A stretch of 64,000 bases of DNA from the NCBI GenBank assembly GCA_902794075.1, contig CADBGE010000001.1:76603-140602 (forward strand), in the 5' to 3' direction. This document shows, in pieces, positions 2,807 to 64,000 of this stretch (within the stretch, counting starts at the first letter, position 1; the number at the start of each line of letters is the position of its first letter). Below the pieces are notes generated by a model. It searched no databases. It saw only the letters and a list, made by a program, of their open reading frames with translations, and was not told the DNA's origin. Made by a program: the position numbers and the translations under genes. The stretch is from an uncultured Erysipelotrichaceae bacterium. Its GTDB lineage: Bacteria; Bacillota_I; Bacilli_A; RF39; UBA660.

Positions 2807-3544
2807 TTAATCTCCTGTCCAATGACCTCCAGCACCTCTATAATATTCTTTACTTATTCTTTGGCCAAATTCGTATCTTTCTTTTTCCAATTTATCTTCA
2901 GTCTCATCATCAAATACTGGGAAAATATCAAATACAGTAGCATCCCACCTATTTGTGAATGAATTAGTTGCTACAACAATTTTTTTAAGTTTATTATATG
3001 TTGTGTCAGGATATTTTTTTAATGTGTCAATGATATCATTTAAAATATCTATCATTCGGTCTTCCTTAATGTTTGAACTATAAGAATGACCTGTTAAATC
3101 ACCATGCCAACAATACGATAATTTTAATTTATCTGGTTTAACTGATGCATCAATTGGGATAAATTTATTCCATGGATTATTGTCAAATTCATCAGAACTT
3201 TTCTTTAACTTATCGTTAAGCCATTCTTGTTGTTTTTCTGGAGATCTTTTAAGAATTCCTGGTTTACTTTCCTTATATTTTAACCAATGTTCCTCAGCTT
3301 TCTTTAATGCAGCTTCTTTTCTTGCTTGACGTTTATCTGTTTGCGTTTTATTATATTCTTCTATAATAGAAACACGAGCAATTAAGAATTTTGACCATGA
3401 TTCCAAGATACCTTCATTTATCTTTTTCTTGATTTTTTCTGATGAATCATTTATATTAATATCTATAGAATTAATGCATATTCTACCGAAATTTTCAATA
3501 TAATCTTTTTTCCATTCATTTATATATTGAACAAGTGATTTCAT
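2807..3544 (-). CDS. hypothetical protein with MKSL-type N-terminal leader
   Basis: 245 aa. Starts MKSLVQYINE. No recognisable domain. Confidence 0.7.
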   Translation of the reverse strand: MKSLVQYINEWKKDYIENFGRICINSIDININDSSEKIKKKINEGILESWSKFLIARVSIIEEYNKTQTDKRQARKEAALKKAEEHWLKYKESKPGILKRSPEKQQEWLNDKLKKSSDEFDNNPWNKFIPIDASVKPDKLKLSYCWHGDLTGHSYSSNIKEDRMIDILNDIIDTLKKYPDTTYNKLKKIVVATNSFTNRWDATVFDIFPVFDDETEDKLEKERYEFGQRISKEYYRGAGGHWTGD

Positions 3545-3578
3545 ATATATCTAATATATTTTAATTAAAAATAATTAT

Positions 3579-3794
3579 TCATTTAGCATCAGGATATAAC
3601 ATAGCCATTGTTTCTGGATATCCACTTAAAAACATTTCATTAAAAATTCTTTCATTTATGTTTACAAGTTTTCCAGAATCATTTTTAATCTTAAATTCAA
3701 TTTTACCACTTGTTGAATATAAACTTGTCATTTTATATTTCTTGTTATGAGAAAAACCTTCATATGTTTTCTCTGGCCTAAGTATTGCTAACAT
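3579..3794 (-). CDS. hypothetical protein
   Basis: 71-aa ATG-initiated ORF filling the gap between co-oriented genes. Confidence 0.5.
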   Translation of the reverse strand: MLAILRPEKTYEGFSHNKKYKMTSLYSTSGKIEFKIKNDSGKLVNINERIFNEMFLSGYPETMAMLYPDAK

Positions 3795-3804
3795 ATTATT
3801 TTAA

Positions 3805-4134
3805 TTATTTTTTAATTTCTTCTAATCCTTCATACTCACCAGTCTTCATACAACAGTTCTTATACTTTTTTCCACTGCCACATGGACACATGTCATTACG
3901 ACCAATTTTTTCATACTTACGAACAATTTGTTTTGGGCGCCTTGCCATTAGTGCACGTATTTTAGCAAGCTGATCTCCAGTAATTACACTATCCTCAAAT
4001 TGTTTCATTTCTTCTGAAACTTCTTCGTCTGTCTTATCTGTCAAATCAACCTCTAAATTACGAAGAGCATTTTGAGCGTCTTCAACAGCAGAACTTTGTT
4101 CTAGCATTTTAATGTTATTTTCTTCCATAGTCAT
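3805..4134 (-). CDS. SEC-C motif metal-binding protein
   Basis: 109 aa. Acidic N-terminal half and a C-terminal [13 protein letters not shown] (SEC-C zinc motif). Lies immediately downstream of the clpX-like gene. Confidence 0.65.
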
Positions 4135-4138
4135 AAAA

Positions 4139-5332
4139 TTATTTATTTAGAATTTTTTCTATATGCTTCTTTGTTATAGTTACTTTCTTATTTTTATATT
4201 CAGCACATCTGAACATATAATCCTCCATGATTTTTTCCATAATTCCTCGAAGACCTCTTGCACCAACTTCAGTATCTAAAGCTTTATCAACAATATAATA
4301 TAATGCATCCTTTTTGAAGTCAATTTCTATATCATCAAGTTTAAGCATCGTCTTATATTGTTTTATAAGTGCATTTCTAGGCCGTGTAAGTACATCATAT
4401 AGTTGTTCACGAGTAAGTTCTGTAGTATGTGCAATAATTGGAAGACGACCAATAATTTCAGGAATTAGTCCAAAACTTCTTAAATCTTGTGTGTTAACAT
4501 CATCCAATGGATCATCATTATTTTTGTCATTATCTCTTCCTGTGACAAAACCGACTGCATGTTTGTTATGTCTTCTCATTATTTCTTCTTCAATTCCAAC
4601 AAATGCACCACTACATATAAATAAAATATTTGTTGTGTCAATTGGAACAAGCTTTTGTTCAGGATGAATTCTTCCACCATTAGGAGGACAGTTGACAATA
4701 GTTCCTTCAAGCATCTTTAGTAATGCCTGCTGAACACCTTCTCCAGAAACATCACGCGTAATACTCGTGTTTCCCTTTTTAGTTCCAATCTTATCTATTT
4801 CATCTATGAACACGATACCTTGTTCTGCTTTCTTTATGTCATAATCCGATGCCTGCAGAAGTTTGCTAAGTACAGATTCAACATCTTCTCCAACATATCC
4901 GCTTTGTGTTAATGAAGTAGCATCAGCAATCACAAAAGGCACATCAATCATTCTTGCAATAGTCTTACACAATAATGTCTTTCCACTTCCTGACGGTCCC
5001 AATAGAACAATATTTGATTTCTCAAGCTCACATTCATTCTTATCATAATTTGAGAACAATCTCTTATAGTGATTATATACTGCAACACTTAATGTCTTCT
5101 TAGCGGAATCTTGTCCAATGACATATTGGTTTAGGAACTCATATATCTCTTGAGGATTAGGAAAACTTTTATTTTCTACGTTTGATGAATTAGGTTCAAA
5201 TTTAATGTTCCGTGCTAATGACAGACATGAATCACACATATATGTCTTACCGTTAAGTCCAACAACGGCGTTCATATCTTCTGTAATGGGTTTACCACAG
5301 AAACTACAAATATTTTGTATATTACTTTTCAT
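4139..5332 (-). CDS. clpX: ClpX-like AAA+ unfoldase
   Basis: 397 aa. N-terminal C4 zinc ribbon (CSFCGK...CDSC), Walker A GPSGSGKT, Walker [10 protein letters not shown], pore-1 GYVG and an IGF-loop-like VGF tripeptide. Confidence 0.85.
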
Positions 5333-10051: not shown

Positions 10052-10379
10052 CTTTATTAAGTTTTAAATCAAGTTCTTTACAAAAATTATCTGCGTTTTT
10101 CTTTGATGTAGTTAAATATGTTTTTATGTATTTATGATCTTCATCAACATATTCAGTATAATTAGAATTGTTAAAACCGACATCATATTTAAACATTATG
10201 TTCTTATTAAATGTCGTGTCATAACAAATAAATCTAACTTGATAATTTTCTATAGAGGCATCACGTGCCATCACTAAATTTCTACAAACATAATCTTTTA
10301 TATTATTTTCGTCATCATACGAAACATCAATTCGGTATAATTTATTGTTTTCTTTTAACTTATAAAAAATTGTAGCCAT
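10035..10379 (-). CDS. hypothetical protein
   Basis: The track ORF starts at TTG 10385. The ATG (MATIFYKL...) is at 10379. The 3' end overlaps the topoisomerase-subunit start. Confidence 0.55.
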   Translation of the reverse strand: MATIFYKLKENNKLYRIDVSYDDENNIKDYVCRNLVMARDASIENYQVRFICYDTTFNKNIMFKYDVGFNNSNYTEYVDEDHKYIKTYLTTSKKNADNFCKELDLKLNKDEQEG

Positions 10380-10403
10380 AATCAAAAATAAAAATTTATA
10401 TTT

Positions 10404-10432
10404 AATATAAAAATAGATCCAAGAAAATTCAA
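10404..10432 (-). promoter_or_regulatory. sigma-70-like promoter TTGAAT-N17-TATATT
   Basis: Minus strand: TTGAAT (10432-10427), 17 nt, TATATT (10409-10404). The -35 sits in the loop of an 8-bp hairpin (10414-10421 / 10433-10440). Confidence 0.55.
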
Positions 10433-10474: not shown

Positions 10475-11221
10475 TCATCCGTTGTACCAATCTGGTGTGT
10501 TTGTTATACCTGAACCGTCAAACATTCGTCCTGTAGCATAAATACTAGATAAATCCCATTTAGATAAATCTCCAACTGATTTTAAGTTTGTACAACAACG
10601 AAACATGGCTGAAATATCTTCAGCATTAGATACATCCCATTTAGATAAATCTCCAACTGATTTTAACTCTTCACAGAAATCAAACATACCGTACATATAT
10701 CTAACTTTTAATACTTTCCATTTTGATAAATCACCTACTGATTCTAATTTATAACAGTTACGAAACATAGTTGAGATATCTTCAACACCTGATACATCCC
10801 AATCAGATAAATCTCCAACTGATTTTAAATTAATGCATTTTTCAAACATTCTAGTTAAAACTTCAGCATTTTGTGTATCCCAATTTGATAAGTCCACAGA
10901 TTTTAATTTTGTGCAGTTTAAAAACATATTGTGCATATTTTTAATGTTTGATACATCCCAGCCAGATACATCTATGTATTCAAAGTTAGTTCCTTGAAAT
11001 ACTCCATAACTACGTTTTTCATCATAAAATGTAGTCATTCCACTTACATCTATATCATTAAAGTAAACAGGTTTCTGTTCTGTTCCAGGTCCTAACTTAT
11101 TGTATTTATCTTCTATAATCTTTCTTAACTCATCAAATGTTTTAGGAAAATATATATATGCGTTTTTATAGTTCTTATTAATGACAAGTTTTTCAGATAA
11201 ATAGTTAACAAGTGACTTCAT
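10475..11221 (-). CDS. DUF285 / BspA-type leucine-rich repeat protein with MKSL leader
   Basis: 248 aa. Starts MKSLVNYLSEKLVINKNYK, followed by about 6 repeats of the SVGDLSxWDVSxxxDxSxMFxxCxxLK type. Confidence 0.8.
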   Translation of the reverse strand: MKSLVNYLSEKLVINKNYKNAYIYFPKTFDELRKIIEDKYNKLGPGTEQKPVYFNDIDVSGMTTFYDEKRSYGVFQGTNFEYIDVSGWDVSNIKNMHNMFLNCTKLKSVDLSNWDTQNAEVLTRMFEKCINLKSVGDLSDWDVSGVEDISTMFRNCYKLESVGDLSKWKVLKVRYMYGMFDFCEELKSVGDLSKWDVSNAEDISAMFRCCTNLKSVGDLSKWDLSSIYATGRMFDGSGITNTPDWYNG

Positions 11222-30026: not shown

Positions 30027-30938
30027 ATGAAGGGATTAGTTAAATATATACATGAATCGCGTATAGAACAAATATCGTTATTATTAGAATCATTAGGTAC
30101 AAATGATATATTAAATGAAATGACATTAGAAGAAGTTTCAAGATCTGAAATGAACGATATATTTAATGGAGAATATTTTGATATTAATGATCTTATACCA
30201 AATGAAATTTCACCATCGCCAGAAAACATTGGAGGATATCAACATTCAAAACATTATAAAATAACATTTAGAAATATACCAATAGCAGTGTTTGGGACAA
30301 TGCCTTTTAGTGATTTGCGAAATACTTTGAAAAATATTTCTAATTTGTATGAATTTTTTGAAGAATGTGAGGATGGGGATGAAACAATGTTTAGTCTATT
30401 ATTAAAATGGGGAGTATTATTATATGATTCAATATATAATATAACATCATGTCCAAAATTATATACAGATTTAAAAACATTTAAGAATAGCACAAATGCT
30501 CTTAAAATATTGTCAAATATAGAGAGTTCAGAAAATGATGATTTGTTATGTTCATTTTTTAAGAAAAGTGACACAGATTCTGCTCTTAAATTATTTATAG
30601 GCGATATTGCCAAAAAAACATGTTATGTTTCATATTTGCATATAAGTAAAATAGCTAAACAACAATTAGATCTTGGTATAACAAGTGTATTGAAAGCATT
30701 TATGATAAAATTTAAAGAAATGGTTAAACAAAACAAAATAGAAGCCCTTTTAGCTATTGGTAAAGATGCTAGAACGGCGAAAATGTATGAGAAAGTTTTG
30801 GATATGAAACAAGTAAATACATCTGATTTTGAAAATAATATTGACAAATTTCCATCAATACTTAATCAATGGATTGATGACGAATTATTTACCAATTTTG
30901 TATATATGTCTACACGTTCATATATGGCTACTCATTAA
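30027..30938 (+). CDS. hypothetical protein with leader-like N-terminus
   Basis: 303 aa. Starts MKGLVKYIHE. Confidence 0.65.
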   Translation: MKGLVKYIHESRIEQISLLLESLGTNDILNEMTLEEVSRSEMNDIFNGEYFDINDLIPNEISPSPENIGGYQHSKHYKITFRNIPIAVFGTMPFSDLRNTLKNISNLYEFFEECEDGDETMFSLLLKWGVLLYDSIYNITSCPKLYTDLKTFKNSTNALKILSNIESSENDDLLCSFFKKSDTDSALKLFIGDIAKKTCYVSYLHISKIAKQQLDLGITSVLKAFMIKFKEMVKQNKIEALLAIGKDARTAKMYEKVLDMKQVNTSDFENNIDKFPSILNQWIDDELFTNFVYMSTRSYMATH

Positions 30939-33017: not shown

Positions 33018-33653
33018 TTAATGTGACCATTTTGGAGCTTTTAATTTTGTTCCATTGGTCATTTTTCTACATTGTTGTGGTCCTAAATTGTTATTTAATT
33101 TTGATTCCCAATTGTCTATGTCTATTCCTTCAAGTGTTTCACAATCTCTAAACATTGCATTAAAATTTGTAACATTTTCAACATTCCATTTGCTAATATC
33201 TCCTATTGTCTTTAATCTTTTACATCCATCAAACATATATCCAAGATGCTTAGCTGATGTCATATTCCATTCAGATAAATCACCAATATATTTAAGATTT
33301 TTACAATCATAAAACATATCATTAAATTTTTTTATATTACTTACATCCCATTTTGAAATATCTATTGCATGCATTTTATAGTCTGATTTCTTTACGTTTT
33401 TATTAACAACGCCAAAAACAAATGATAAATCATCTAAATTAAATACATTAATATCGTTAAGGTCAACTGGTTTTTTATCGGTTCCTCCTTTTTGTTTTAT
33501 GACTAAATCTGAAATAACTTTTATAAGTTCTTCCTTTGTTTCTGGAGTATATATTTGTTCATCTTTATAGTTCTTATTAATTACAAGTTTTTCATTCACT
33601 TGTGATGGAAATATGACAAGTTTTTCAGATATGTAGGTCTTTAATGATTTCAT
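33018..33653 (-). CDS. DUF285 / BspA-type LRR protein with leader plus one FPSQV unit
   Basis: 211 aa. Starts MKSLKTYISEKLVIFPSQVNEKLVINKNYK, followed by IDISKWDVSNIKKFNDMFYDCKNLK-type repeats. Confidence 0.8.
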   Translation of the reverse strand: MKSLKTYISEKLVIFPSQVNEKLVINKNYKDEQIYTPETKEELIKVISDLVIKQKGGTDKKPVDLNDINVFNLDDLSFVFGVVNKNVKKSDYKMHAIDISKWDVSNIKKFNDMFYDCKNLKYIGDLSEWNMTSAKHLGYMFDGCKRLKTIGDISKWNVENVTNFNAMFRDCETLEGIDIDNWESKLNNNLGPQQCRKMTNGTKLKAPKWSH

Positions 33654-33739: not shown

Positions 33740-34168
33740 TTATACTTTAAATTTTATAATCATCATTGGTTCATTAACATCATCAGTCTCTAGTCTTCTT
33801 AAAAGTATTGTTCCATCATTATTTGTGTATGTGTCATCACCAACTTCATTGTCAATTTTACCGATCTTACTTAAAAACTTGTTCATTTCATTAGAATTTT
33901 TGCCTTCTACATATTGAGCAAGATTGAATTTCCTAAAAAGCGCTTTATTAGAATTTACTTGATTTTTAACTGTTGAGCCATTAGGTAATTTTAGATCTGT
34001 GTTAAAATATATTTTTTCTATAGTAGCTTTATCTTGTATATTATTTGTGTCAATATTACATAATTCTAATTGTTTGTTTGCCATGGCAAAGTCTTTATAT
34101 GTAACTGGCTTTGTATCAAACACACCTTCATCAATTCTTTCCTGTATATAATTAACTAATGATTTCAT
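33740..34168 (-). CDS. hypothetical protein with MKSL leader
   Basis: 142 aa. Starts MKSLVNYIQE. Confidence 0.65.
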   Translation of the reverse strand: MKSLVNYIQERIDEGVFDTKPVTYKDFAMANKQLELCNIDTNNIQDKATIEKIYFNTDLKLPNGSTVKNQVNSNKALFRKFNLAQYVEGKNSNEMNKFLSKIGKIDNEVGDDTYTNNDGTILLRRLETDDVNEPMMIIKFKV

Positions 34169-34186: not shown

Positions 34187-34876
34187 TTATCTTTTTCTGA
34201 CTTCTGAATACCATGCTGGCATCCTCCATCCAGTTGTTCCTGAAAAAAACATTCTAATATTTTGTCCTGTGACACTCTTATTTATTTTCCAATTATCTAA
34301 ATTTATTGGTTTAAGTTTTTCACATCCTTTAAATAAATAATTAAAATTTTTTACTTTAGAAACATTCCATTGTCCAATATCACCAATATCAGTTAATCGT
34401 TTGCAATTCTCAAACATTGATTTTATATTAACTGCGTTATTCATTTTCCAATTAGATAAGTCACCAATGTTTTTTAACATTTTGCATCCATTAAACATAT
34501 TATAAAAGTCCGTACCAGACGAAACATCCCAGTTACTTAAATCACCTATATAATGAATTGATGAGCATTCACTAAACATATTAGAAAAATCAAGTACATT
34601 ACTTACATTCCAATTACTTATATCAATATATTTAATTTTTCCATAATTAGCATAATAATAATCAGTATAATAAAATGTACTACTTAAATCTTGTACATTA
34701 GACACATCAATATCATTTAAATTTATAGGGTTTTTTTCAGATGATTCTTGTTGACCTTCAAATCTTTCTTTAAGTATTTCTATAAGTTCATGTTTATCTT
34801 TTGGATGTTCAACATAAGGCTCAACATAATCCTTATTTATCTGTAATTTTTCATTTATGAATGATGTTAATGACAT
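34187..34876 (-). CDS. DUF285 / BspA-type LRR protein with degenerate leader
   Basis: 229 aa. Starts MSLTSFINEKLQINKDY. Contains repeats such as IDISNWNVSNVLDFSNMFSECSSIHYIGDLSNWDVS. Confidence 0.8.
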   Translation of the reverse strand: MSLTSFINEKLQINKDYVEPYVEHPKDKHELIEILKERFEGQQESSEKNPINLNDIDVSNVQDLSSTFYYTDYYYANYGKIKYIDISNWNVSNVLDFSNMFSECSSIHYIGDLSNWDVSSGTDFYNMFNGCKMLKNIGDLSNWKMNNAVNIKSMFENCKRLTDIGDIGQWNVSKVKNFNYLFKGCEKLKPINLDNWKINKSVTGQNIRMFFSGTTGWRMPAWYSEVRKR

Positions 34877-38366: not shown

Positions 38367-39545
38367 TTATGCTGCAATTCTTGCTTTTATTTCATCAAGA
38401 TATTTCTTTGCTTTGTTAAGTCTGTCTTTACAATCCTCAAGTCTTGATGCAGCATCAGATCTATAATACTCACCACGTCTTTCAGGATTTTCATCTCCCT
38501 TTTCACGACCAAGTTGAACTGATTTTTCAGCGTCTTTCATACTCTTAAGATATTTGAAATAATCCTCAAATGCCGATGTAATGTAATTCATTACGTTACC
38601 GATGTTATAGCCTTCATCAATATGATCTGTATTGTCAATTATCTGTTCTGATAGTTTAAGAGCTTCATTATGAATTTTTGTGATTTCATTGAACATATAC
38701 TTTGGATTATCTTTAAGTCTCTTTGCGCGAAGTTCTTTAGCAAGTACTTGATAGTGCAATTTTTGAAGTCTAGCAAGTTCTTTTAATGATTCATCATCAT
38801 AATTTATGACACCTTTCTGAGATTCTTCTCTGTCTTTCACAAGTACATCATAATCAGTTATGAATTCATTTGGAATTTCAACAAAGTATATTTCATAATC
38901 ATTAATAAGTTCAATTAATGCGTCTACCTTAAGGTCTCCTTCTTGCCAACCACCCTTACGAAGTGGCGCAGTCTTTTTAGCAACCCTCCTATGTGAATCA
39001 CCTGATGAATTAGTCCATGCCTTAAATTCAAATGTTGAAGGTTTATATGGTTTGCCTGTTTTAGAATCATTATTTGAATATCCGCGAACAGCATATACGA
39101 TATCATGAGTCTCTGGGTCACACACAATGATTAGTCCACGAATCTTACCAGCATATAGCTGCTTAATTCTCTTATGAAGAGCATTCTCATATCCACCTTC
39201 ATAATAAGTTACATTATCATCAGTAATCTTATCCCATTGGCACCCACGAACTTTTTTCTTAGATGATCCATATCTTGAAGTTTGAACAATAGGGCCAAAC
39301 AATGAAGCAAAAGATTTTTCTGATGGTGTTATTTTTCCATATCCTTTCTCATCATATTCTTTTTGTTTTCTTATGTCTTCTGCTCTGTGTTCTTTTTCAT
39401 ATTCTTTTACTGTAGAAGCAAGTTTGCCTAATATCTTTGCCTTGAATGCTTCGTTAATCATTTCTTCACCAATGATTGATGCAGCCTCAGTAAGAATAAT
39501 ATTATCGCATTCCTTGTCAAACAAGTATTCTTTTAAGTTCTTCAT
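38367..39545 (-). CDS. hypothetical protein with leader-like N-terminus
   Basis: 392 aa. Starts MKNLKEYLFD. Confidence 0.7.
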   Translation of the reverse strand: MKNLKEYLFDKECDNIILTEAASIIGEEMINEAFKAKILGKLASTVKEYEKEHRAEDIRKQKEYDEKGYGKITPSEKSFASLFGPIVQTSRYGSSKKKVRGCQWDKITDDNVTYYEGGYENALHKRIKQLYAGKIRGLIIVCDPETHDIVYAVRGYSNNDSKTGKPYKPSTFEFKAWTNSSGDSHRRVAKKTAPLRKGGWQEGDLKVDALIELINDYEIYFVEIPNEFITDYDVLVKDREESQKGVINYDDESLKELARLQKLHYQVLAKELRAKRLKDNPKYMFNEITKIHNEALKLSEQIIDNTDHIDEGYNIGNVMNYITSAFEDYFKYLKSMKDAEKSVQLGREKGDENPERRGEYYRSDAASRLEDCKDRLNKAKKYLDEIKARIAA

Positions 39546-40092: not shown

Positions 40093-40707
40093 TTATTCTA
40101 TTATGAACATGTACCAATATTCCATGTATTCTTTTCCATTGTAATTGACATGCATATTAAGTTTCAATAAATTACATTTATGTTTACCTAATTGTTCTTC
40201 CCATACTGTTGCAGTGCAATTCATTTTCTGATGTATGATTCTTGATTTCCATGTATCTGTTATATCATTTATAAATTTTGGAACAATCTTATCTAATGCA
40301 TCAAAACTATCATAATTTTTCCAGCCAACTACAATGTTACCATCACAAAATCGTTCAATTACTTCATACATATCGTCAGACTTTCCAAAATTGTCTTCCC
40401 AAGGTTCAAAATAGTCTCTGACTGTAAACTCTTCTGAATCATCCCAAAGAGCAGGATCATTCTTGCCTGATTTTGCAATGTATTCAACCGTATCATACAA
40501 GTCGTCATCACTATTTATAGATTCAATTTTATCAAACACTTCATTATTATATAATTTAGTGTTTTTATTTATGACAAGTTTTTCATTCACTTGCGATGGA
40601 AATATGACAAGTTTTTCATCTACTTGTGATGGACGTATTATTAGTTTTTCATTTATTGAAATCGAAGGTTGCTTCTTATATTTTAGATATTGTTTTAATG
40701 TTTTCAT
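40093..40707 (-). CDS. hypothetical protein, leader with two FPSQV-type units
   Basis: 204 aa. Starts MKTLKQYLKYKKQPSISINEKLIIRPSQVDEKLVIFPSQVNEKLVINKN. Confidence 0.7.
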   Translation of the reverse strand: MKTLKQYLKYKKQPSISINEKLIIRPSQVDEKLVIFPSQVNEKLVINKNTKLYNNEVFDKIESINSDDDLYDTVEYIAKSGKNDPALWDDSEEFTVRDYFEPWEDNFGKSDDMYEVIERFCDGNIVVGWKNYDSFDALDKIVPKFINDITDTWKSRIIHQKMNCTATVWEEQLGKHKCNLLKLNMHVNYNGKEYMEYWYMFIIE

Positions 40708-40783: not shown

Positions 40784-41416
40784 TCATATTAGTGATAACT
40801 TATTCAAAATACTTGATGGAACATAATCATCAGCATAAACATTTTCAAAATCATCATTTGAAACTTTGTCTGATCTAATTGTTCCGCATGTAAATTCTTT
40901 AACTATATCACGTCTTTCGTTAGTTAATGTAGGTAAGAATTTATCGTTTCCTTCCAACATGTTGTTCATTAATTGATTTGCGTTAACGATTTTTACAGAA
41001 TTAAAATTATGTGAATAACATACATAATAATTATTAACGTCATTTCCAAAATTGACAAGTGAACGTGCTGTTGGCGGTCCGTAAACAATTTTTCTACTGT
41101 TTGATGGTTGAGAAACTTTAATGTCAATATGAATTTCTGACTTGCCATTAGTTAATATAATATCGCCATACTGCAGATCATTTTTTGTAGAATATGTCAT
41201 ACCGTTATCCTTTAACCATTCACGTAATGTCATTGCAGTATATTCAGTATTCGCTTCATTAAAAGCTTCACACCATTTTTCTGCTTGCGTATCTGCAATA
41301 TCATATGACCTTTTTTCCATTGGATTCAATTTTGGATTCAAATTCTTAATGGTCTTCCACAAATTATTTAGACCAGAATTTGAACTTTCTTTAATATAGT
41401 TAATGAGTGATTTCAT
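40784..41416 (-). CDS. hypothetical protein with MKSL leader
   Basis: 210 aa. Starts MKSLINYIKE. A possible D...D-x-K nuclease-like pattern (GDIIL...IHIDIKVS) is only weakly supported. Confidence 0.65.
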   Translation of the reverse strand: MKSLINYIKESSNSGLNNLWKTIKNLNPKLNPMEKRSYDIADTQAEKWCEAFNEANTEYTAMTLREWLKDNGMTYSTKNDLQYGDIILTNGKSEIHIDIKVSQPSNSRKIVYGPPTARSLVNFGNDVNNYYVCYSHNFNSVKIVNANQLMNNMLEGNDKFLPTLTNERRDIVKEFTCGTIRSDKVSNDDFENVYADDYVPSSILNKLSLI

Positions 41417-41477: not shown

Positions 41478-42536
41478 TCATTTAAAAATTTTGTCTAAAT
41501 CTTCAATGTCTCCTTCAGGCTCAACAGTTTCAATGGATATATCGTCAATGTCAGCATCAGATAAATTTACATCAGCAGGTACACAATATTTAATACCTTC
41601 AATATCTTTTTTACTGAGTTTTCTTGGTCTTTCATTCCAATAACTTTCATCAATATTTGATTCGGCAATGATTTCATTTGTCTTAGTCATAGTCTCATAT
41701 ATAAATTGTTTTTCTTTATAATTGTCCAAAGTGTAATATCTTAAAGATGTTACTGTTTTAAACATGCATTCACAATAAACACAAATTTTTTCATATGTGT
41801 TTTCTGTTACATATATTGTTGGATTAAATAGTTTATAATATTTTGTCACATAGTTAATTAGTTTATTAGAAACATTTCTTGTACAGAATAAGAATATTTC
41901 TCCTTGTCTAGGATCTTTTAATTTTTTTGCATCAAATGAAATAAATAAACCAACAACATTTTTAACATTTTTACTTTTTAACTGATCTTTTATAATTGAT
42001 TCAACGTCGAAATTTTCATTTTCTTTTGAAGCATATGTCGTTAATTCATAATCAATATTATATTTATCTTTAGCCATTTTTCTAATTTCATTGCATTTTG
42101 CCTTAAACTCTTTGCCGTGAGCTTGTTTTGGATATGTACAATCAATAGAAGTCCAAAGATGAACCATTTCATGAATTAGTGTGTCTTCATACTTTGTTAT
42201 AGACATTGGTATATTACTATTAATATATATGTATGGCTTCATATCTAAAATGTTGGTGACTTCTTTAGACGATGACTGAAAATGCATAATGTATTTTCCA
42301 TTTTTAAGTTTATTCTTAAAATATACACCAGATTCATGAAATCCTTGAACACCTAACATACTACCTTTTATTAATTTTCCATGAGTATATTGTATGTCTA
42401 TTTCTTCTGCATTAGGCAATTCATTAAAAAAATATTCAGCATTGAATTTATTATAATGTTCAATCATCCATTCAGTAGATATTTTTTCATATGATGATTC
42501 TTTTATATAATCAATTAAACTCTTCATATATGACAT
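41478..42536 (-). CDS. SprT-like zinc metalloprotease domain protein with MKSL leader
   Basis: 352 aa. Starts MSYMKSLIDYIKE (an alternative ATG at 42527 gives a canonical MKSL start). HExxH motif TLIHEMVHLW. Confidence 0.65.
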   Translation of the reverse strand: MSYMKSLIDYIKESSYEKISTEWMIEHYNKFNAEYFFNELPNAEEIDIQYTHGKLIKGSMLGVQGFHESGVYFKNKLKNGKYIMHFQSSSKEVTNILDMKPYIYINSNIPMSITKYEDTLIHEMVHLWTSIDCTYPKQAHGKEFKAKCNEIRKMAKDKYNIDYELTTYASKENENFDVESIIKDQLKSKNVKNVVGLFISFDAKKLKDPRQGEIFLFCTRNVSNKLINYVTKYYKLFNPTIYVTENTYEKICVYCECMFKTVTSLRYYTLDNYKEKQFIYETMTKTNEIIAESNIDESYWNERPRKLSKKDIEGIKYCVPADVNLSDADIDDISIETVEPEGDIEDLDKIFK

Positions 42537-45302: not shown

Positions 45303-45857
45303 TTATTCAAAGCATTCACTATATTTTTCAATATCTTCTACAGAAAAATATTTCTTATATTTCTCAAGAATTTTCAGTCCATGCTCATGAATATACTCAA
45401 GTAATGGATTTGAGTTCTTCAGTCCTCCTGATTCAAAATTATAAAAATATATTATTGCATCAAGATTATCAATAAAGTCACCTCTAACATCAATATCATT
45501 ACTAAATAGCCAATCAACAAAATCCTCATATAATTTATGATAACCATTCCAAGAACATATATTTCTATTCTTTCTATCTATATGTTTTGATTGATCCTTC
45601 ATTCTAATAAGATTTATTTCGTCATAACACAAAATTTCATCAAGTGCTATTTCAAAATTAAATTTAGAAAAAGGTCTTTTATCATTACTAAGATAAATGT
45701 GTATATGAGGTCTTTGCCTATCTCCGGCATTAGTTCCATGAACAGTAATATAATAATCTATTTTATTTAGTACAGGATATCCTATACTTGCCATTTCTAC
45801 TACATAATCCCATTCAGGATTGAACTGTTCATCCACGTATGTATTTAGATGTTTCAT
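45303..45857 (-). CDS. hypothetical protein with leader-like N-terminus
   Basis: 184 aa. Starts MKHLNTYVDE. Located between tRNA sub-clusters. Confidence 0.65.
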   Translation of the reverse strand: MKHLNTYVDEQFNPEWDYVVEMASIGYPVLNKIDYYITVHGTNAGDRQRPHIHIYLSNDKRPFSKFNFEIALDEILCYDEINLIRMKDQSKHIDRKNRNICSWNGYHKLYEDFVDWLFSNDIDVRGDFIDNLDAIIYFYNFESGGLKNSNPLLEYIHEHGLKILEKYKKYFSVEDIEKYSECFE

Positions 45858-51046: not shown

Positions 51047-51349
51047 TTAAAATCCTTCATCTCTTAACCATTCCTTTGCATGACGAACGATAAGTGCATC
51101 AATATCGCGACGATCACTAGCATTTTTATACTTATGCTCAAGCCATTCGAGACCATCATAATCATATAAGAAGTTCTCAAGGAAGTCTTCAATGTCATCG
51201 CCATCAGCAAGAGACATAACAACGGTCTCTACCCATTCCTTACCGTCTGTTTCATAATTTGAATCAAGAACATCCATATATACTTCATATAAATATTCGA
51301 GATCATCTTGACTTATGGATTCATTGATGTATTCTATTAAACTTTTCAT
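51047..51349 (-). CDS. small acidic protein with MKSL leader
   Basis: 100 aa. Starts MKSLIEYINE. Very Asp/Glu-rich. Confidence 0.65.
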   Translation of the reverse strand: MKSLIEYINESISQDDLEYLYEVYMDVLDSNYETDGKEWVETVVMSLADGDDIEDFLENFLYDYDGLEWLEHKYKNASDRRDIDALIVRHAKEWLRDEGF

Positions 51350-53277: not shown

Positions 53278-53808
53278 TTATTTTTTTCCTAAGAACAGAT
53301 CATAATATTCATCATTGCCAATAACGATAATAATGAATTCATCAGTTTCATCATATTCAAAAGCATATCCATTCATATCATTAAATTCTAACTGTTTTAA
53401 TTCTATATTCTTATTAATCATTTCATCGAATGCTTTTGAAATGAATTCATTTTTTCCATTAACTTCAATCATATACGTTTCATTACATTGCTTCAATAAA
53501 CGTATAGTTTCAATAGCATTTTTTATTTCTGAAAGTTTGTGCCCAAACGCTGATGTAATGTCTGCAGCTTCAACAAATGCATTATCTGGGCTAATTTGTG
53601 TGTATATTAGACCACCTTTTCTTTCGTCTATCGACCGCCATATTTTTGATAATATTTCATTAAGATCATCTGAAGAATTTTTATAGTTCTTATTAATGAC
53701 AAGTTTTTCATCCACTTGTGATGGAAATATGACAAGTTTTTCATTTAAATATTCATTTAAAGAATAAAGATCTTTCACATGTGAAATATATTTACTTAAT
53801 GATATCAT
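53278..53808 (-). CDS. hypothetical protein, doubled leader plus one FPSQV unit
   Basis: 176 aa. Starts MISLSKYISHVKDLYSLNEYLNEKLVIFPSQVDEKLVINKNYK. Confidence 0.7.
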   Translation of the reverse strand: MISLSKYISHVKDLYSLNEYLNEKLVIFPSQVDEKLVINKNYKNSSDDLNEILSKIWRSIDERKGGLIYTQISPDNAFVEAADITSAFGHKLSEIKNAIETIRLLKQCNETYMIEVNGKNEFISKAFDEMINKNIELKQLEFNDMNGYAFEYDETDEFIIIVIGNDEYYDLFLGKK

Positions 53809-53907: not shown

Positions 53908-54405
53908 CTATTTTTTACGATGTAAAAATATATGATATCTTCTAGTCAGCTTACCAAAAAACAGCATATCATATTTTTCGGTTGACAACCATTCTACATT
54001 AATGTCGAATGACGGAGTTTCTTTTATCAAGACTTTTATATGTATGTTAGCTTTTTCAAAATCATCAAGCATATCATTAACATGTTCTGATCTTAAAAAA
54101 TTTAAAATTGGATATTTTGAATTACTCTCATACATTGATTTTATTTTGTTCCGTATGTCATTAATGACATTTCTATCTGGAGCTTTTCCATACAAATTTG
54201 CATTATTGCAGAATATTTCCCATGCTGTTTTAAACTTTGCTATCGGGCATCCAAATTTCATTATGCTGCTTAACTTTTCATCTTTGTTGTCCCATAGGTT
54301 TTTGTCAATTATATCGTCTATTGTATCGTCATCTGGATTTCCAACTTGAACAAAGTTCTTGTTAATGACTAGTTTTTCAGTCAAATATTTATTTAATGAT
54401 TTCAT
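53908..54405 (-). CDS. hypothetical protein with MKSL leader
   Basis: 165 aa. Starts MKSLNKYLTEKLVINKNF. Confidence 0.7.
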   Translation of the reverse strand: MKSLNKYLTEKLVINKNFVQVGNPDDDTIDDIIDKNLWDNKDEKLSSIMKFGCPIAKFKTAWEIFCNNANLYGKAPDRNVINDIRNKIKSMYESNSKYPILNFLRSEHVNDMLDDFEKANIHIKVLIKETPSFDINVEWLSTEKYDMLFFGKLTRRYHIFLHRKK

Positions 54406-54424: not shown

Positions 54425-54964
54425 TTAAGCTTTTGACATCCAGAATGCATATATTTCATCAGTCATTGAATCACATACAGCAAACAGTGTATATTTATTA
54501 TTTGAGCAGCCTTTAAGTATGGCGTCTTTGACATTTGAGCCAAGAGCAATGTTCAATTCATCATATATAGCATTTTTATTTGATGAATATTCAGTAAATA
54601 TTTTGTTGATTATCTTATATGATTCTTTACTTATTGTGTCTTGTTTTTCTATTTGTACCCACATAGCATATTCATCACTATTGTCGGCTATATCAAGAAT
54701 CTTTGTTAGAAAATTGTCTTCAATGTATGATTGTATATGCTTAACATCTACATTTGAATTGATGTATCTTTTACTTACATATAAATATATTGTGTATGCT
54801 AAATTTTTTGCAATGACAGATGATTTTCCTGAATTTGAATAATAATATGTAAGTTCATCAGAGAACTTGTATAGCTTCTCAAGCAGTTCGTCACAATCGT
54901 CTGGAGATTTGTAGTTCTTGTTTACTAATAGTTTTTCAGTAAGATATGCGTTTAATGACTTCAT
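54425..54964 (-). CDS. hypothetical protein with MKSL leader
   Basis: 179 aa. Starts MKSLNAYLTEKLLVNKNYK. Confidence 0.7.
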   Translation of the reverse strand: MKSLNAYLTEKLLVNKNYKSPDDCDELLEKLYKFSDELTYYYSNSGKSSVIAKNLAYTIYLYVSKRYINSNVDVKHIQSYIEDNFLTKILDIADNSDEYAMWVQIEKQDTISKESYKIINKIFTEYSSNKNAIYDELNIALGSNVKDAILKGCSNNKYTLFAVCDSMTDEIYAFWMSKA

Positions 54965-54970: not shown

Positions 54971-55438
54971 CTAAATAAATATGTATATAAGAGTATGTTC
55001 TTTTCCTATCACTTTATTTTTCATTATCCATACGATTACATAATTTCCATCATCTCTTTCAAACTTAGCTAACGAATCATAATCGTTCCAATTTATAGGT
55101 CTATGGTCATCGTCACTTTCAAAATTGATATATTCCTCAGGTATGTAGTTTCTTAAGTCTTTAGGAAATATTTTACCAACACTTTTTTCATAATCATCTT
55201 CTTTTGTTATGTCACAAAAACAGTATTCAAATGTATTACGATTCATATCTTTAAACAAATCATTTACTTTATCTGATTTTTTATTCATAGTCGATTCATT
55301 TATTGTGTCTATAATATTTTTACATGACTCTTCTCCAGTTATATGAACATCGTGTGGAATAAATAATTTGCTACCAACATTTTTATAATTTTTATTAATA
55401 ACTAATTTTTCATTTATGTAACTACTTAATGACTTCAT
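54971..55438 (-). CDS. hypothetical protein with MKSL leader
   Basis: 155 aa. Starts MKSLSSYINEKLVINKNYK. Confidence 0.7.
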   Translation of the reverse strand: MKSLSSYINEKLVINKNYKNVGSKLFIPHDVHITGEESCKNIIDTINESTMNKKSDKVNDLFKDMNRNTFEYCFCDITKEDDYEKSVGKIFPKDLRNYIPEEYINFESDDDHRPINWNDYDSLAKFERDDGNYVIVWIMKNKVIGKEHTLIYIFI

Positions 55439-55441: not shown

Positions 55442-56020
55442 TTATGAATTATCTTCAATGAATTTTTTAATTTTTTCAATGTCCTTTTCGGATAAATTTA
55501 ACGAATATGACATCTCTGAATCTACTCCATCTAAATTATCTATATATTCATATGTAAAAATGTTAAATAATTTATCGATATATGCTGGTGTATATTCTTT
55601 AAAACTAGTCAAATTGTCAAATGCATTTATATTCCTCTTCATATGAGATACTGGAATAAATACATAATATGATCCACAATTATTATTTATTGACTCCTTT
55701 GTTGCTACAAGTTGATTATTAGTATCATATTTTACATCTATTGCCCAGTTTCCAAATCCTGTAACAGATGATCCTTCTAAATGTTGTTCACCATATTTGT
55801 TTGGTTCTCCTAATTCATCAAGTGATATACCAATTATACTTAAATAAGCGTTTGGCTTAGAATTTGGGCTATATATAAATACTAATAAATTTTGAAAATG
55901 ATTATAATCTTCTGACGAAATTGATACATCTTTGAAGTTCTTATTAATTACAAGCTTTTCATCTACTTGTGATGGAAATATGACAAGTTTTTCATCTATG
56001 TAGCGTTTTAATGATTTCAT
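55442..56020 (-). CDS. hypothetical protein, leader plus one FPSQV unit
   Basis: 192 aa. Starts MKSLKRYIDEKLVIFPSQVDEKLVINKNFK. Confidence 0.7.
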   Translation of the reverse strand: MKSLKRYIDEKLVIFPSQVDEKLVINKNFKDVSISSEDYNHFQNLLVFIYSPNSKPNAYLSIIGISLDELGEPNKYGEQHLEGSSVTGFGNWAIDVKYDTNNQLVATKESINNNCGSYYVFIPVSHMKRNINAFDNLTSFKEYTPAYIDKLFNIFTYEYIDNLDGVDSEMSYSLNLSEKDIEKIKKFIEDNS

Positions 56021-60706: not shown

Positions 60707-60746
60707 AATATTTTTAATTATATAAATGATATAGTTTAAATTATCC

Positions 60747-61217
60747 ATGAAACGGCTAAATAATTATATAATTAAAGAAGGAATAAAGAAGACATCAAAA
60801 ATTCGTGACAATATTAAATTCATTATTTGGCAGCGTCCAGAGAAAAAGATAAAATGGTTAGAAAATAACGATAAATATCAAAAAATCGAATATAAGTACG
60901 AAGACGTCGATAAAATGATATTTATCCAATTCCTCTTAGGCTATGTCAAAGAAGATAAGACATGGAAAATGTGGATAGGTAAAATAGGTGCAGCGAGTTA
61001 TGATGATGATCCATATTGTAAATTAGATACGGAAAAGTTCTCAGAAGCAATTCTAACGGCATGTGACAAAATTGAGGAATTTATTGAGAAAGTAAATAAA
61101 GATCCGCTGAACTATATTCAGTTTTATAAAAGTAATCCAGCAGATTCTGGTGGCGGTGATGAAGGATCTGGTGAAGATAGTGGTGGAGATGAAGGTGGTG
61201 GAGGAGATCTATTATGA
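60747..61217 (+). CDS. hypothetical protein with leader-like N-terminus and Gly/Asp/Glu-rich tail
   Basis: 156 aa. Starts MKRLNNYIIKE and ends SGGGDEGSGEDSGGDEGGGGDLL. Confidence 0.6.
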   Translation: MKRLNNYIIKEGIKKTSKIRDNIKFIIWQRPEKKIKWLENNDKYQKIEYKYEDVDKMIFIQFLLGYVKEDKTWKMWIGKIGAASYDDDPYCKLDTEKFSEAILTACDKIEEFIEKVNKDPLNYIQFYKSNPADSGGGDEGSGEDSGGDEGGGGDLL

Positions 61218-61422: not shown

Positions 61423-61449
61423 AAGAGAGAACTTAAGTTCTCTCTTTTT
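61423..61449. terminator. bidirectional rho-independent terminator
   Basis: 10-bp stem aagagagaac (61423-61432) / gttctctctt (61437-61446) with loop ttaa. T-run on the plus strand and an A-run upstream, so it fits both convergent genes. Confidence 0.7.
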
Positions 61450-61467
61450 ATATTAGTTTATATTAAT

Positions 61468-62112
61468 TTACATGTTAGAACATCCATGTAACATATTATA
61501 TGTTTTTGCGGATGACACAATGTTCCATTTATTTAAATCAAAATTTAATTCATAACAAAACATAAACATTCCAGTAAAATCTTTTCCATTCTTTACGTCC
61601 CACTTACTTAAGTCGCAATTGAATTTTTTACATCCATAAAACATGCAAGAAAAATCTTCTCCATTCTTTACGTCCCACTTACTTAAGTCACAATTGAATT
61701 TCTGACAATTAAAAAACATACTTTTAAAATTATTGCCGCCACTTACATTCCAATCACTAATGTCAAATCCTTTACGTCCTACATTTTTGTCTTCAAAAAA
61801 CAAATCACTAAAATCATCTATTTCTGAAACATCAATGTCATTTAAATCATATATATCTTTGTCATAATGTTCTTTTATAATGTCTTTTAGTTCATCTTTA
61901 TTTTTAGGATGATAATTATACATTTTATAGTTCTTATTAATTACAAGCTTTTCATCTACTTGTGATGGAAATATTACAAGCTTTTCGTCTACTTGTGATG
62001 GAAATATTACAAGCTTTTCATCTACTTGTGATGGAAATATGACAAGCTTTTCATCTACTTGTGATGGAAATATGACAAGTTTTTCATGTATATACTTATT
62101 TAATGATTTCAT
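61468..62112 (-). CDS. DUF285 / BspA-type LRR protein, leader with four tandem FPSQVD units
   Basis: 214 aa. Starts MKSLNKYIHE(KLVIFPSQVDE)x4 KLVINKNYK. Contains repeats such as FDISDWNVSGGNNFKSMFFNCQKFNCDLSKWDVKNG. Confidence 0.8.
   Translation of the reverse strand: MKSLNKYIHEKLVIFPSQVDEKLVIFPSQVDEKLVIFPSQVDEKLVIFPSQVDEKLVINKNYKMYNYHPKNKDELKDIIKEHYDKDIYDLNDIDVSEIDDFSDLFFEDKNVGRKGFDISDWNVSGGNNFKSMFFNCQKFNCDLSKWDVKNGEDFSCMFYGCKKFNCDLSKWDVKNGKDFTGMFMFCYELNFDLNKWNIVSSAKTYNMLHGCSNM
61943..62087. repeat. 33-bp tandem repeat, 4 full copies plus a partial one (coding)
   Basis: Units acaagcttttc(a/g)tctacttgtgatggaaatat(t/g) at 61943-61975, 61976-62008, 62009-62041 and 62042-62074, plus a partial unit to about 62087. 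Each encodes EKLVIFPSQVD on the minus strand. Confidence 0.9.
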
Positions 62113-62672
62113 TTTAATTTGTCTATTATTTTATCATAATCTGATTTTGACGGATTATCTGTTCCTACAACATAATCGTTATCAACTATTGTTTTAAACA
62201 ACGTTATAAAGTCATCAATTGGCATTTTATAACAGTTTCTTATTTCCCAGCCTTCAACAGATGAATGGGTACCCTGATCATATACAGCTTTAACTATTAT
62301 TAAATTATCATTAACTGGATATATTGATAATTCAATAATTTTATTTTCATCTAATACACTCTTATGAAATGTTATTGTATTATCAAAATTTGATACTGTA
62401 ATAACAACTAAACCTTCATCTAAATACTTGTTGACATCGCCATTAATAGATGCGTATTTTTGTTTTATATTTTTTTCAACTGACTTCAATAGATTTTTAT
62501 ATGCACTGTTATTAAGTTCAAGACGATATCCCCATATCATACCATTACGTTTCAATTCACTCATTTCTCCATCAGTAATCAATCTAATAATATTATCAAG
62601 TTCATTGTCGGTATTCTTGAAGTTTTTATTGATGATTAATCTTTCATTCAAATATGTCATGAGTCTTTTCAT
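62109..62672 (-). CDS. hypothetical protein with MKRL leader variant
   Basis: The track ORF starts at TTG 62684. The ATG at 62672 gives MKRLMTYLNERLIINKNFK. ATGA overlaps at both ends link it to its neighbours. Confidence 0.7.
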   Translation of the reverse strand: MKRLMTYLNERLIINKNFKNTDNELDNIIRLITDGEMSELKRNGMIWGYRLELNNSAYKNLLKSVEKNIKQKYASINGDVNKYLDEGLVVITVSNFDNTITFHKSVLDENKIIELSIYPVNDNLIIVKAVYDQGTHSSVEGWEIRNCYKMPIDDFITLFKTIVDNDYVVGTDNPSKSDYDKIIDKLK

Positions 62673-63277
62673 TCTTTGTACCAATATGGTGTATTTTTTA
62701 TTCCTGAGTGTGCAAACATACCGCGCATATTTTCACATTCTGAAACGTTCCAATTTGATAAGTCACCTACAAATTTTAAATTTATACAGTCATAAAACAT
62801 GCTGTTCATATTTTCAACTTTTGAAACATCCCAATCTGATAAATCTCCAATTGATATTAACTTGTTGCACCATGCAAACATACCGCGCATATTTTCAACT
62901 TTTGAAACATCCCAATTAGATAAGTCTCCCGCTGATTCCAAATTTTCACAGTGATAAAACATATATTCCATGTGTTCAACATTTGAAACATCCCAATCTG
63001 ATATGTCAATATATTCAAATTTTGTTACATCAAATATTCCTACAGTTCCATCATAAAATGAATCAATGTTACTTACATCTACATCGTTAAAGTCAATAGG
63101 ATTCTTCTCTGTACCAGGTCCTTGTTCTTTATATCGTTGTTCTATAATCTTTCTTAACTCTTTAAATGATTTTGGAGCACATGTATATAAGTTGTAATTT
63201 TTATTAATGATTAGCTTTTCATCAAATCGCTGATTGATGATTAATCTTTCATTCAAATATGTCGTGAGTCTTTTCAT
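62669..63277 (-). CDS. DUF285 / BspA-type LRR protein with MKRL leader variant
   Basis: The ATG at 63277 gives MKRLTTYLNERLIINQRFDEKLIINKNYN. Contains repeats such as IDISDWDVSNVEHMEYMFYHCENLESAGDLSNWDVSKVENM. Ends YWYKE. Confidence 0.8.
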   Translation of the reverse strand: MKRLTTYLNERLIINQRFDEKLIINKNYNLYTCAPKSFKELRKIIEQRYKEQGPGTEKNPIDFNDVDVSNIDSFYDGTVGIFDVTKFEYIDISDWDVSNVEHMEYMFYHCENLESAGDLSNWDVSKVENMRGMFAWCNKLISIGDLSDWDVSKVENMNSMFYDCINLKFVGDLSNWNVSECENMRGMFAHSGIKNTPYWYKE

Positions 63278-64000
63278 TCTTTGTACCAATCTGGTATATT
63301 TGTTATTCCTGAATCTTTAAACATATCATCCGTAAACATAACATTTGAAACATCCCATTTAGATAAATCTCCTACTGATTTTAAGTTTATGCATCCATAA
63401 AACATGCATGACATATTTTCACATTTTGAAACATTCCATTTTGATAAATCTCCAATTGATTTTAATTTTTCGCATCCGCTAAACATTTCTACTGTATCTT
63501 CAACACTTGAAACATCCCATTTAGATAAATTTCCAACAGATTCTAATTTATAACAATTACGAAACATATAACTAATATCTTCAACACTAGATACATCCCA
63601 TTTAGATAAATTTCCAATTGTGTTTAAATTATAACATCCATAAAACATATAACTAATATCTTTAACATTTGAAACATTCCATTTTGATAAGTAACCAACC
63701 GATTTTAAATTGTGACAATCAAAAAACACCCCAAACATATTTTCAACACTTGAAACATCCCATCTTGATATGTCAATGTATTCAAACTCAATTTCTTCAA
63801 ATGCGCCTCTATTATTATAAGAAACAAGTGTTTTTAATTTACTAACATCAACATCATTAAAGTCAATAGGTTTCTGTTTTGTCCCAGGTCCTTGTTCTTT
63901 GTATCGTTGTTCTATGATCTTTCTTAACTCTTCAAATGTTGATGGATCACAGGTATATGGATTATTATAATTTTTATTTATAACCAACTTTTCATTCAAA
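63274..64000 (-). CDS. DUF285 / BspA-type LRR protein, 5'-partial (start beyond window end)
   Basis: The reading frame is open to the window edge. The first visible residues, (L)NEKLVINKNYN, are the distal part of the leader. At least 6 LRR units follow. Ends DWYKE, with the stop overlapping the next ATG. Confidence 0.8.
   Translation of the reverse strand, partial: LNEKLVINKNYNNPYTCDPSTFEELRKIIEQRYKEQGPGTKQKPIDFNDVDVSKLKTLVSYNNRGAFEEIEFEYIDISRWDVSSVENMFGVFFDCHNLKSVGYLSKWNVSNVKDISYMFYGCYNLNTIGNLSKWDVSSVEDISYMFRNCYKLESVGNLSKWDVSSVEDTVEMFSGCEKLKSIGDLSKWNVSKCENMSCMFYGCINLKSVGDLSKWDVSNVMFTDDMFKDSGITNIPDWYKE

Follow-up and report, generated by a model that had tools for sequence, protein, structure and literature searches.

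About one third of the genes in a 64-kb stretch of phage DNA were found to share a single N-terminal tag of ten residues, here called the leader. With moderate confidence we take the leader to be a propeptide system of the capsid targeting sequence (CTS) type known from phage T4, greatly expanded and modular. The stretch (the window; 29.5% GC, 68 genes counted) corresponds to approximately positions 29,158-93,157 of the 400,026-bp metagenomic contig ENA ERZ27280413 k141_844548. The phage that carries the leader is an uncultivated gut phage of ~400 kb, one of a lineage of huge phages with AT-rich DNA.

A conserved N-terminal leader

The original prediction listed 22 leader open reading frames (ORFs) in the window. 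All 22 were found, each starting with the leader or with one of its close variants (Table 1). The two plus-strand coordinates (30027 and 60747) were exact, but the values given as minus-strand starts are the low, stop-side ends; the true start of a minus-strand gene is the higher coordinate in Table 1. The start of the ORF at 63274 lies beyond base 64000, and its N terminus was taken from the adjoining locus L011. Four leader genes, namely this ORF in its entirety and three others, are found in L011 within 2.5 kb beyond the right side of the window, giving a total of 25 across the ~84 kb of genome read (window and flanks).

The leader begins at Met1 in every leader gene of the window. The strict core MK.L..Y[ILVM].E was present in 16 of the 22 ORFs, and the other six are close variants (MSLTSFINE, MISLSKYISH...LNEYLNE, and leaders with D, Y or K at position 10). 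As the strict motif was absent from 20 shuffled windows and occurred 16 times in the real one, chance is excluded as its source. The generalised skeleton M..φ..φφ.E (φ, hydrophobic residue) was observed in 16 of the 68 window genes, with an expectation of ~0.003 per protein. None of the replication, tRNA-associated and tail genes of the window has the tag, the tail fibre included.

Conservation was determined on 155 unique leaders, which came from the window, from related contigs and from homologs in databases. The consensus is M-K-(S/T)-L-x-x-Y-(I/L/V/M)-x-E. Met1 was invariant, and K2 (154/155), L4 (151/155), Y7 (149/155), [ILVM]8 (155/155) and E10 (150/155) were nearly so; position 3 is mostly Ser or Thr, and positions 5, 6 and 9 are free polar residues. 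The i, i+3, i+4 spacing of the hydrophobic residues predicts a short amphipathic helix that ends in φ-x-E.

A second element, E[KR]L..NK, follows in 15 of the 25 leader proteins, so that the earlier statement that most of them continue EKLVINKN(Y/F)K holds narrowly. Additionally, we discovered an insert module of 11 residues, KLVIFPSQVDE (KLVINQRFDE is one of its variants), which had been overlooked before. It is present in zero to four copies between the core and KLVINKNY, and two 33-nt tandem arrays code for such modules (Table 1). All module endings have the form φ-x-E (VDE 18 times, FDE eight times, VNE three times, and VSE, IDE and VYE once each).

We used AlphaFold2 with a 60-sequence alignment to model the 248-aa leader protein at 10475..11221, in which the leader precedes a DUF285 domain. 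The predicted local distance difference test score (pLDDT) was 93 overall; the solenoid was confident from about residue 24, and the domain reached 97-99. Although residues 1-20 are nearly invariant in sequence, they scored 43-51 and were not packed on the domain. This fits a linear motif that would be read in trans.

The residues are fixed at the level of the peptide. Synonymous codons vary at Lys2 (AAA/AAG), Ser3 (TCA/AGT), Leu4 (TTA/CTC/CTT/CTA) and Tyr7 (TAT/TAC), and the 40 nt upstream of the leader ATGs have almost no information content and no conserved sequence. Selection therefore acts on the peptide and not on the mRNA. An mRNA or translation-initiation element, which the original prediction had set against its own reading, is contradicted by the synonymous variation. 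Its view that the leader is not a Sec, Tat or lipoprotein signal was borne out, as there is no h-region and three hydrophobic residues stand amid polar ones. The window does contain lipoprotein-type signals, for instance MKKTFIFSLLISLVLSFAMISC at 42622-43275, and these are unlike the leader.

A promoter-like box, TATTTTTAAT(A/T)(T/A)ATA, was detected 12-45 nt 5' of many start codons on both strands (for example at 11251-11259, 15490-15498, 38260-38268, 39579-39587, 51370-51378, 56048-56056 and 60709-60717). It was rejected as a leader-specific element, being found also 5' of the topoisomerase operon, a giant ORF, the tail-fibre operon and homing endonucleases, and missing from many leader genes. 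Since a sigma-like gene is present at 31096-32343, the box is probably the phage's own promoter type.

Comparison with the capsid targeting sequence of T4

The comparison was made on the whole T4 genome (NC_000866). The relevant T4 N-termini are MKTYQEFIAE (IPII and IPIII), MKTFKEFTST...TITE (IPI), MAKINELLRE (gp24) and MELITELFDE (Alt). According to the summary of Mullaney & Black 1996 in PMC9026906, the first ten residues of IPIII suffice for packaging, with residues 4 and 7 chiefly responsible for targeting and residues 8 and 10 for processing. Besides Met1 and Lys2, the invariant positions of the leader are 4, 7, 8 and 10, the same as the T4 determinants named in that summary. Positions 4 and 7 are Tyr and Phe in T4 and Leu and Tyr in the leader, thus hydrophobic or aromatic in both.

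Among 1,992 open ATG N-termini of T4, the pattern ^MK[ST]φ..[FYW][ILVM].E matched IPII, IPIII and gp61.1 only. The skeleton ^M..φ..φφ.E matched four of 802 T4 ORFs (IPII, IPIII, gp24 and gp61.1) and Alt at its annotated start, with a chance expectation of ~0.8 in 292 genes. Four of these five proteins lose N-terminal propeptides to gp21 (PMC5694885). In relatives of the window phage, leaders such as MKNLTEYIAEA and MKSLNTYIAEA are near-identical to the T4 sequence MKTYQEFIAEA. The likeness to the T4 CTS is thus stronger than was known when it was first proposed: the invariant positions are the T4 determinants, as far as the summary cited above gives them, and the motif picks out gp21-processed proteins almost exclusively.

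Profile comparisons did not recover this relation. A position-specific scoring matrix (PSSM) of the leader gave IPII/III 0.3 bits, ranking about 15th of 802 (not significant), and with a profile hidden Markov model (HMM) of the leader they were outside the top 22. For this reason homology to the T4 CTS is not demonstrable.

What the two systems have in common is an N-terminal 10-mer with the skeleton M-K-(S/T)-φ-x-x-aromatic-(I/L)-x-E on otherwise unrelated cargo. The internal proteins of T-even phages form a very varied set whose sole common part is the conserved CTS (PMC3012670), and other proteins of phages related to T4 also have CTS-like sequences (PMC9026906). Leader genes moreover share with ipI of T4 a setting amid tRNA genes and GIY-YIG endonucleases. 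The systems differ in that the present phage has tens of tagged genes and T4 about five, in the cargo, which here is mostly acidic and includes an expanded leucine-rich repeat (LRR) family and enzymes, and in the frequent second element KLVINKNY and the tandem, repeat-expandable 11-residue modules.

T4 gene 61.1 (NC_000866 18966-19130, minus strand) encodes a hypothetical protein of 54 aa that starts MKTFKEFIKE. It fits the CTS skeleton like IPII and IPIII and resembles the IPI leader; gp61.1 may be an unrecognised packaged protein.

Prohead protease and capsid genes in related phages

In two related loci, both with 30% GC, leader genes were found directly upstream of a gene for a prohead protease of the Peptidase_S77 family. 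In L066 (IMGVR_UViG_3300012979_000128) a T4_neck gene is followed by leader genes, then by Peptidase_S77 (E=3.4e-11) and the Gp23 major capsid protein (E=1.7e-33); the leader genes beside the protease begin MKTLKEYILEA... and MKSLNQYIEEKL... In L061 (JAEEGL011465725.1) five leader genes are followed by genes beginning MKSLENYINEA... and MQSLSEYIAK..., and these lie directly upstream of Peptidase_S77 (E=2.5e-11). The ORF after the L061 protease resembles the L066 capsid gene at its start and extends beyond the locus. The leader genes thereby occupy the place of the prohead-core genes 67 and 68 in T4.

The proteases of the lineage start MANKKCLIYE and MSNKKCLVYE, which gives φ7-φ8-x-E10 and recalls the LIE-9 motif of T4 gp21. 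They also have an acidic C-terminal repeat extension of ~350-400 residues (L061 12871-14532; L066 10001-11740), with repeats such as PEIQNWVVEEYS. Because no separate gp22-like scaffold gene was found between the protease and the capsid gene of the leader lineage, this acidic tail may act as a scaffold.

No Peptidase_S77 homolog was detected in the ~84 kb read of the present genome, the ~316 kb remainder being outside the search. A gp21-type prohead protease, which had been expected along with the leader, was thus located in the lineage (L061 and L066, with Gp23 next to it in L066) and not in the part of this genome that was read. Lak-C1 also encodes a Peptidase_S77 protein, and when this was used as bait for the protease of the present genome, Lak-like proteases only were retrieved. 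Two candidates were rejected: P0074 pointed to a distantly related phage of 283 kb whose protease gene has an in-frame stop, and P0123 pointed to an unrelated T4-like phage with 43% GC. With the L061 protease as query, none of the matches listed was the protease of the present genome, and a GTDB scan gave nothing.

In a Lak-like phage of 283 kb (ENA ERZ1667811 scaffold_26, locus L007) the S77 gene at 9653-11518 contains one in-frame stop (…LWYD*NTAC…), which suggests stop-codon recoding in late genes of that phage. The protease and capsid genes of L061 and L066 are free of such stops.

Proteins carried behind the leader

After removal of the leader, BLASTP grouping of the 25 proteins gave 18 families, one DUF285 family of eight members and 17 singletons. 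That everything downstream of the leader is unrelated, as had been claimed, therefore applies to the 17 singletons and not to the eight DUF285 paralogs. DUF285 scored above the Pfam gathering threshold in the genes at 10475, 33018, 34187 and 61468 (hmmscan) and in the gene at 62669 and three genes of L011 (precomputed Pfam), with E-values in leader proteins down to 1e-51. The likeness to DUF285 (PF03382)/BspA-type LRR proteins is confined to these eight of the 25 leader proteins, 17 of the 18 cargo families not being DUF285.

Pfam identified DUF285 and a SprT-like metalloprotease among the cargo of the window, and NUDIX, a HAD-like hydrolase and DUF3175 behind the same tag in relatives. For the other cargo proteins examined, Pfam, PHROGs and NCBIfam gave no useful match. 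The cargo is mostly acidic, with an isoelectric point (pI) of ~5. The leader protein at 51047-51349 is reminiscent in its composition (Table 1) of DNA-mimic anti-restriction proteins.

Occurrence of the leader outside the window

The DUF285 leader protein at 10475..11221 had 2055 database homologs at E<1e-8, and nearly all of the best 120 carry the leader at their start. An exhaustive search with the leader profile gave 224 clusters (50% identity) at E<=0.001, and for nearly all of the 150 of these that were listed, the match begins at residue 1. All leader-bearing members that were sampled are metagenomic sequences. Among 185,579 bacterial and archaeal species genomes (GTDB) there was no confirmed leader match. 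Similarly, the longer N-terminal module of leader, KLVINK and 'Y.YFPKTK.EL..II' was found in metagenomic sequences only and was unconfirmed in any GTDB genome.

Contigs of the lineage are present in IMG/VR, and JGI metagenomes yielded 42 loci; in total 197 leader ORFs were counted across the lineage loci examined. A back-translated leader pattern had no match in IMG/VR, an alignment-based scan gave one contig, and a leader-alignment search of a 5.8-billion-protein set returned short fragments only. The strict leader was absent from a 40-kb stretch of Lak-C1. DUF285 matches in Vibrio phage sm033 and Lak-C1 were considered as carriers of the leader and dismissed, as they have none.

In the literature we found no description of the leader family, its scale, the repeat modules or the link to DUF285 expansion in huge phages. 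The underlying principle is known from T-even phages.

Genome context and features of the window

The gene content of the window includes a T4-type split topoisomerase II, NAD ligase, RNA ligase, a sigma-like factor and a tail fibre. Of the named phages, the Prevotella Lak megaphages are most closely related, their large subunit of topoisomerase II being 54% identical; the window phage is not itself a Lak phage. Megablast of 12 kb of the window against GenBank phages gave no match. Leader clusters adjoin tail fibre, sheath and tube genes, and a T4 gp18-like sheath gene follows shortly after the window on its right side.

At 8627-10051, 12107-13231 and 13247-15163 (minus strand), the genes for the two T4-type topoisomerase II subunits are separated by ~3.2 kb, in which there are a homing-endonuclease-like gene (PHROG 3339; DUF7487), an HNH gene and a leader gene of the DUF285 type. 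Two adjacent giant ORFs at 15536-20875 (1779 aa) and 20955-29339 (2794 aa), both on the plus strand, had no Pfam match above threshold, with a marginal Metallophos in the first.

A tmRNA gene (39652-40035, minus strand; Rfam RF00023, 118.8 bits; tag peptide GEDTFALAA) was found between leader genes. About 17 tRNA genes lie at 43537-50466 (minus strand), for which ARAGORN and Rfam were complementary (47920-47991 and 50033-50106, for example, were detected by Rfam only). The tRNA cluster encloses two GIY-YIG homing-endonuclease-like genes (43920-45035 and 49079-49960) and one leader gene, resembling the ipI/tRNA/segB neighbourhood of T4. The window also encodes a ClpX-like AAA+ protein (4139-5332, minus strand) with a ClpX zinc finger, AAA_2 and ClpB_D2-small, adjoined by a small SEC-C protein (3805-4134, minus strand). 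No ClpP was seen in the genome region read.

Table 1. Leader genes and tandem arrays of the window. The leader column includes second elements and inserts; for minus-strand genes the higher coordinate is the start.
Position	Strand	Length (aa)	Leader or repeat	Cargo	Remarks
2807..3544	-	245	MKSLVQYINE	orphan	Pfam only sub-threshold vRNAP_dom; no PHROG/NCBIfam match
10475..11221	-	248	MKSLVNYLSE + KLVINKNYK	DUF285 LRR	Pfam DUF285 E=2.9e-46
30027..30938	+	303	MKGLVKYIHE	orphan	no Pfam, PHROG, NCBIfam match
33018..33653	-	211	MKSLKTYISE + one KLVIFPSQVNE insert + KLVINKNYK	DUF285	DUF285 E=4.5e-20
33740..34168	-	142	MKSLVNYIQE	orphan	no Pfam, PHROG, NCBIfam match
34187..34876	-	229	MSLTSFINE + KLQINKDY	DUF285	variant, without Lys2, Phe replaces Tyr; DUF285 E=8.9e-51
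38367..39545	-	392	MKNLKEYLFD	orphan	position 10 is Asp; no Pfam, PHROG, NCBIfam match
40093..40707	-	204	MKTLKQYLKY...SINE, then KLIIRPSQVDE/KLVIFPSQV inserts	orphan	variant; contains tandem array 40570-40653
40570..40653	-		33-nt tandem array, 2.5 copies, 82% matches		codes for insert modules
40784..41416	-	210	MKSLINYIKE	orphan	no Pfam, PHROG, NCBIfam match; fragment P0005 is an ortholog
41478..42527	-	349	MKSLIDYIKE	SprT-like metalloprotease	Pfam SprT-like E=2.2e-8
45303..45857	-	184	MKHLNTYVDE	orphan	inside tRNA cluster
51047..51349	-	100	MKSLIEYINE	very acidic	pI 4.1, net charge about -18
53278..53808	-	176	MISLSKYISH...LNEYLNE + insert + KLVINK		variant
53908..54405	-	165	MKSLNKYLTE + KLVINKNF	orphan	
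54425..54964	-	179	MKSLNAYLTE + KLLVNKNYK	orphan	
54971..55438	-	155	MKSLSSYINE + KLVINKNYK	orphan	
55442..56020	-	192	MKSLKRYIDE + one insert + KLVINKNFK	orphan	
60747..61217	+	156	MKRLNNYIIK	orphan	position 10 is Lys
61468..62112	-	214	MKSLNKYIHE + four KLVIFPSQVDE inserts	DUF285	DUF285 E=1.4e-44
61940..62087	-		33-nt tandem array, 4.5 copies, 96% matches		codes for KLVIFPSQVDE modules
62109..62672	-	187	MKRLMTYLNE + RLIINKNFK	orphan	
62669..63277	-	202	MKRLTTYLNE + RLIINQRFDE insert + KLIINKNY	DUF285	
63274..64000	-	261 (3' part in window)	MKRLTTYISHMKDLHSLNEYLNE + KLVINKNY	DUF285	entire in L011 at 9219-10004; 3 further leader genes follow

Discussion

In a CTS-type propeptide system, the precursor would bind through the hydrophobic face formed by L4 and Y7 to the prohead's scaffolding core during assembly, and the S77 protease would then cut after Glu10 at φ8-x-E10. 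The 11-residue insert modules, each ending in φ-x-E, could serve as optional extra cleavable spacers that are cut after each module. The freed cargo would be retained in the head and enter the host together with the DNA. We infer these steps of docking, cleavage, packaging and injection from the leader and from the T4-type head module of the lineage; a role of the cargo in host takeover or anti-defence is a conjecture.

Several observations weigh against this reading. The cargo is acidic, whereas the T4 internal proteins are basic (PMC9026906), and 25 tagged genes in ~84 kb are far above the handful of T4. A CTS of ten residues leaves the conservation past Glu10 (KLVINKNY and a helix, in 15 of the 25 proteins) unexplained. 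The S77 and capsid genes are known from relatives, whose DUF285 proteins are ~40% identical to those of the window. The match to T4 is one of motif class alone, which convergence could explain, and φ-x-E by itself carries little information. Overall, the original prediction is partly supported, in that the leader is a peptide-level N-terminal signal with likeness to the T4 CTS; the profile HMM misses the T4 CTS and so does not show homology, and the cargo is acidic where that of T4 is basic.

Propeptides with multiple cleavage sites are known from giant phages (PMC5694885). In phiKZ, 201phi2-1 and SPN3US, as proposed here, a gp21-like protease cleaves after Glu in a short motif, propeptides have several sites and many proteins are located in the head. 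The diverged paralogs gp53 and gp54 of SPN3US have identical N-termini, which were called CTS-like by the authors (PMC5694885). The propeptides of these three phages differ from the leader in being mostly >100 residues long and family-specific, with Ser, Ala or Gly at P3, whereas the leader is a single short tag that is universal across unrelated proteins and has a hydrophobic P3.

The cargo-loading peptides of encapsulins and the packaging signals of the P1 Dar proteins are likewise short terminal peptides that bring varied cargo into an HK97-fold shell as it assembles. The encapsulin peptides are usually C-terminal and uncleaved, and P1 Dar packaging is hierarchical, without a common 10-residue tag. 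Neither has a sequence relationship to the leader. P1 is discussed in CTS terms in PMC9024508.

Instead of to the prohead, the leader could direct its cargo elsewhere as an address or interaction peptide recognised in trans, either as a degron or adaptor tag for a phage ClpX-like unfoldase, through which early effectors would be destroyed at a set time, or by docking to a hub or chaperone. We regard this as rather unlikely, although it agrees with a peptide that is conserved yet unstructured and sits on unrelated cargo, with the ClpX-like AAA+ protein (with its zinc finger) and the tmRNA encoded in the window, with the conservation that runs past Glu10, with the acidic, enzyme-like cargo and with a promoter box common to leader and replication genes. 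It leaves unexplained why the fixed positions are the same as the T4 CTS determinants 4, 7, 8 and 10 (as listed in the summary of the T4 work), why the motif selectively matches gp21 substrates in T4, why in L061 and L066 the prohead protease has leader genes directly upstream, and why every insert unit ends in φ-x-E. A smaller chance still is given to a related idea, in which the tag would be the address label of a novel leader-dependent system for sorting or timing that huge phages possess, operating through a ClpX-type machine or a phage-built compartment, and the likeness to the T4 CTS would be convergent.

It is improbable that the leader is a virion-surface anchor, which would fix variable binding domains such as the DUF285 LRRs to the capsid or tail in the manner of tailspike N-terminal anchors. 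DUF285/BspA-like LRRs are commonly annotated as surface proteins, leader clusters lie beside the tail fibre, sheath and tube genes, and a conserved N terminus with a variable C terminus is typical of receptor-binding proteins. However, NUDIX and HAD hydrolases, a SprT-like protease and tiny acidic orphans are implausible as adhesins, an amphipathic helix of ten residues is far shorter than known anchor domains, and the tail fibre itself lacks the tag. Least probable is a leader without function, either a relic of duplication or recombination in which a shared 5' cassette (promoter and first codons) would serve modular shuffling, or else an element of the mRNA or of translation initiation: the promoter-like box 5' of many leader genes, the active duplication in the 33-nt arrays and the conserved promoter cassettes that drive gene shuffling in T4-type hyperplastic regions, as far as the accounts in PMC2839356 and PMC4122927 go, would suit it, but the residues are fixed while codons vary even across both serine codon families, nucleotides -40 to -1 are not conserved among leader genes, the box also precedes non-leader genes and is absent from many leader genes, and the residue pattern is kept in phages with ~40% identical cargo and across the 224 clusters.

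If the leader is a T4-like CTS, a simple motif would list dozens of head-loaded, host-delivered proteins per genome, among them small-molecule hydrolases and an LRR family that is diversifying, and thereby provide a concrete list of candidate injected anti-defence or takeover factors. This reading is testable without phage culture, with the tag exchanged for that of T4 IPIII in the T4 packaging system, and the leader would offer phage engineering a natural, modular and repeat-expandable packaging tag. The T4 internal-protein principle of one targeting peptide with fast-evolving cargo would then extend to huge phages at a much larger scale, and the question of what huge phages inject would become searchable by sequence.

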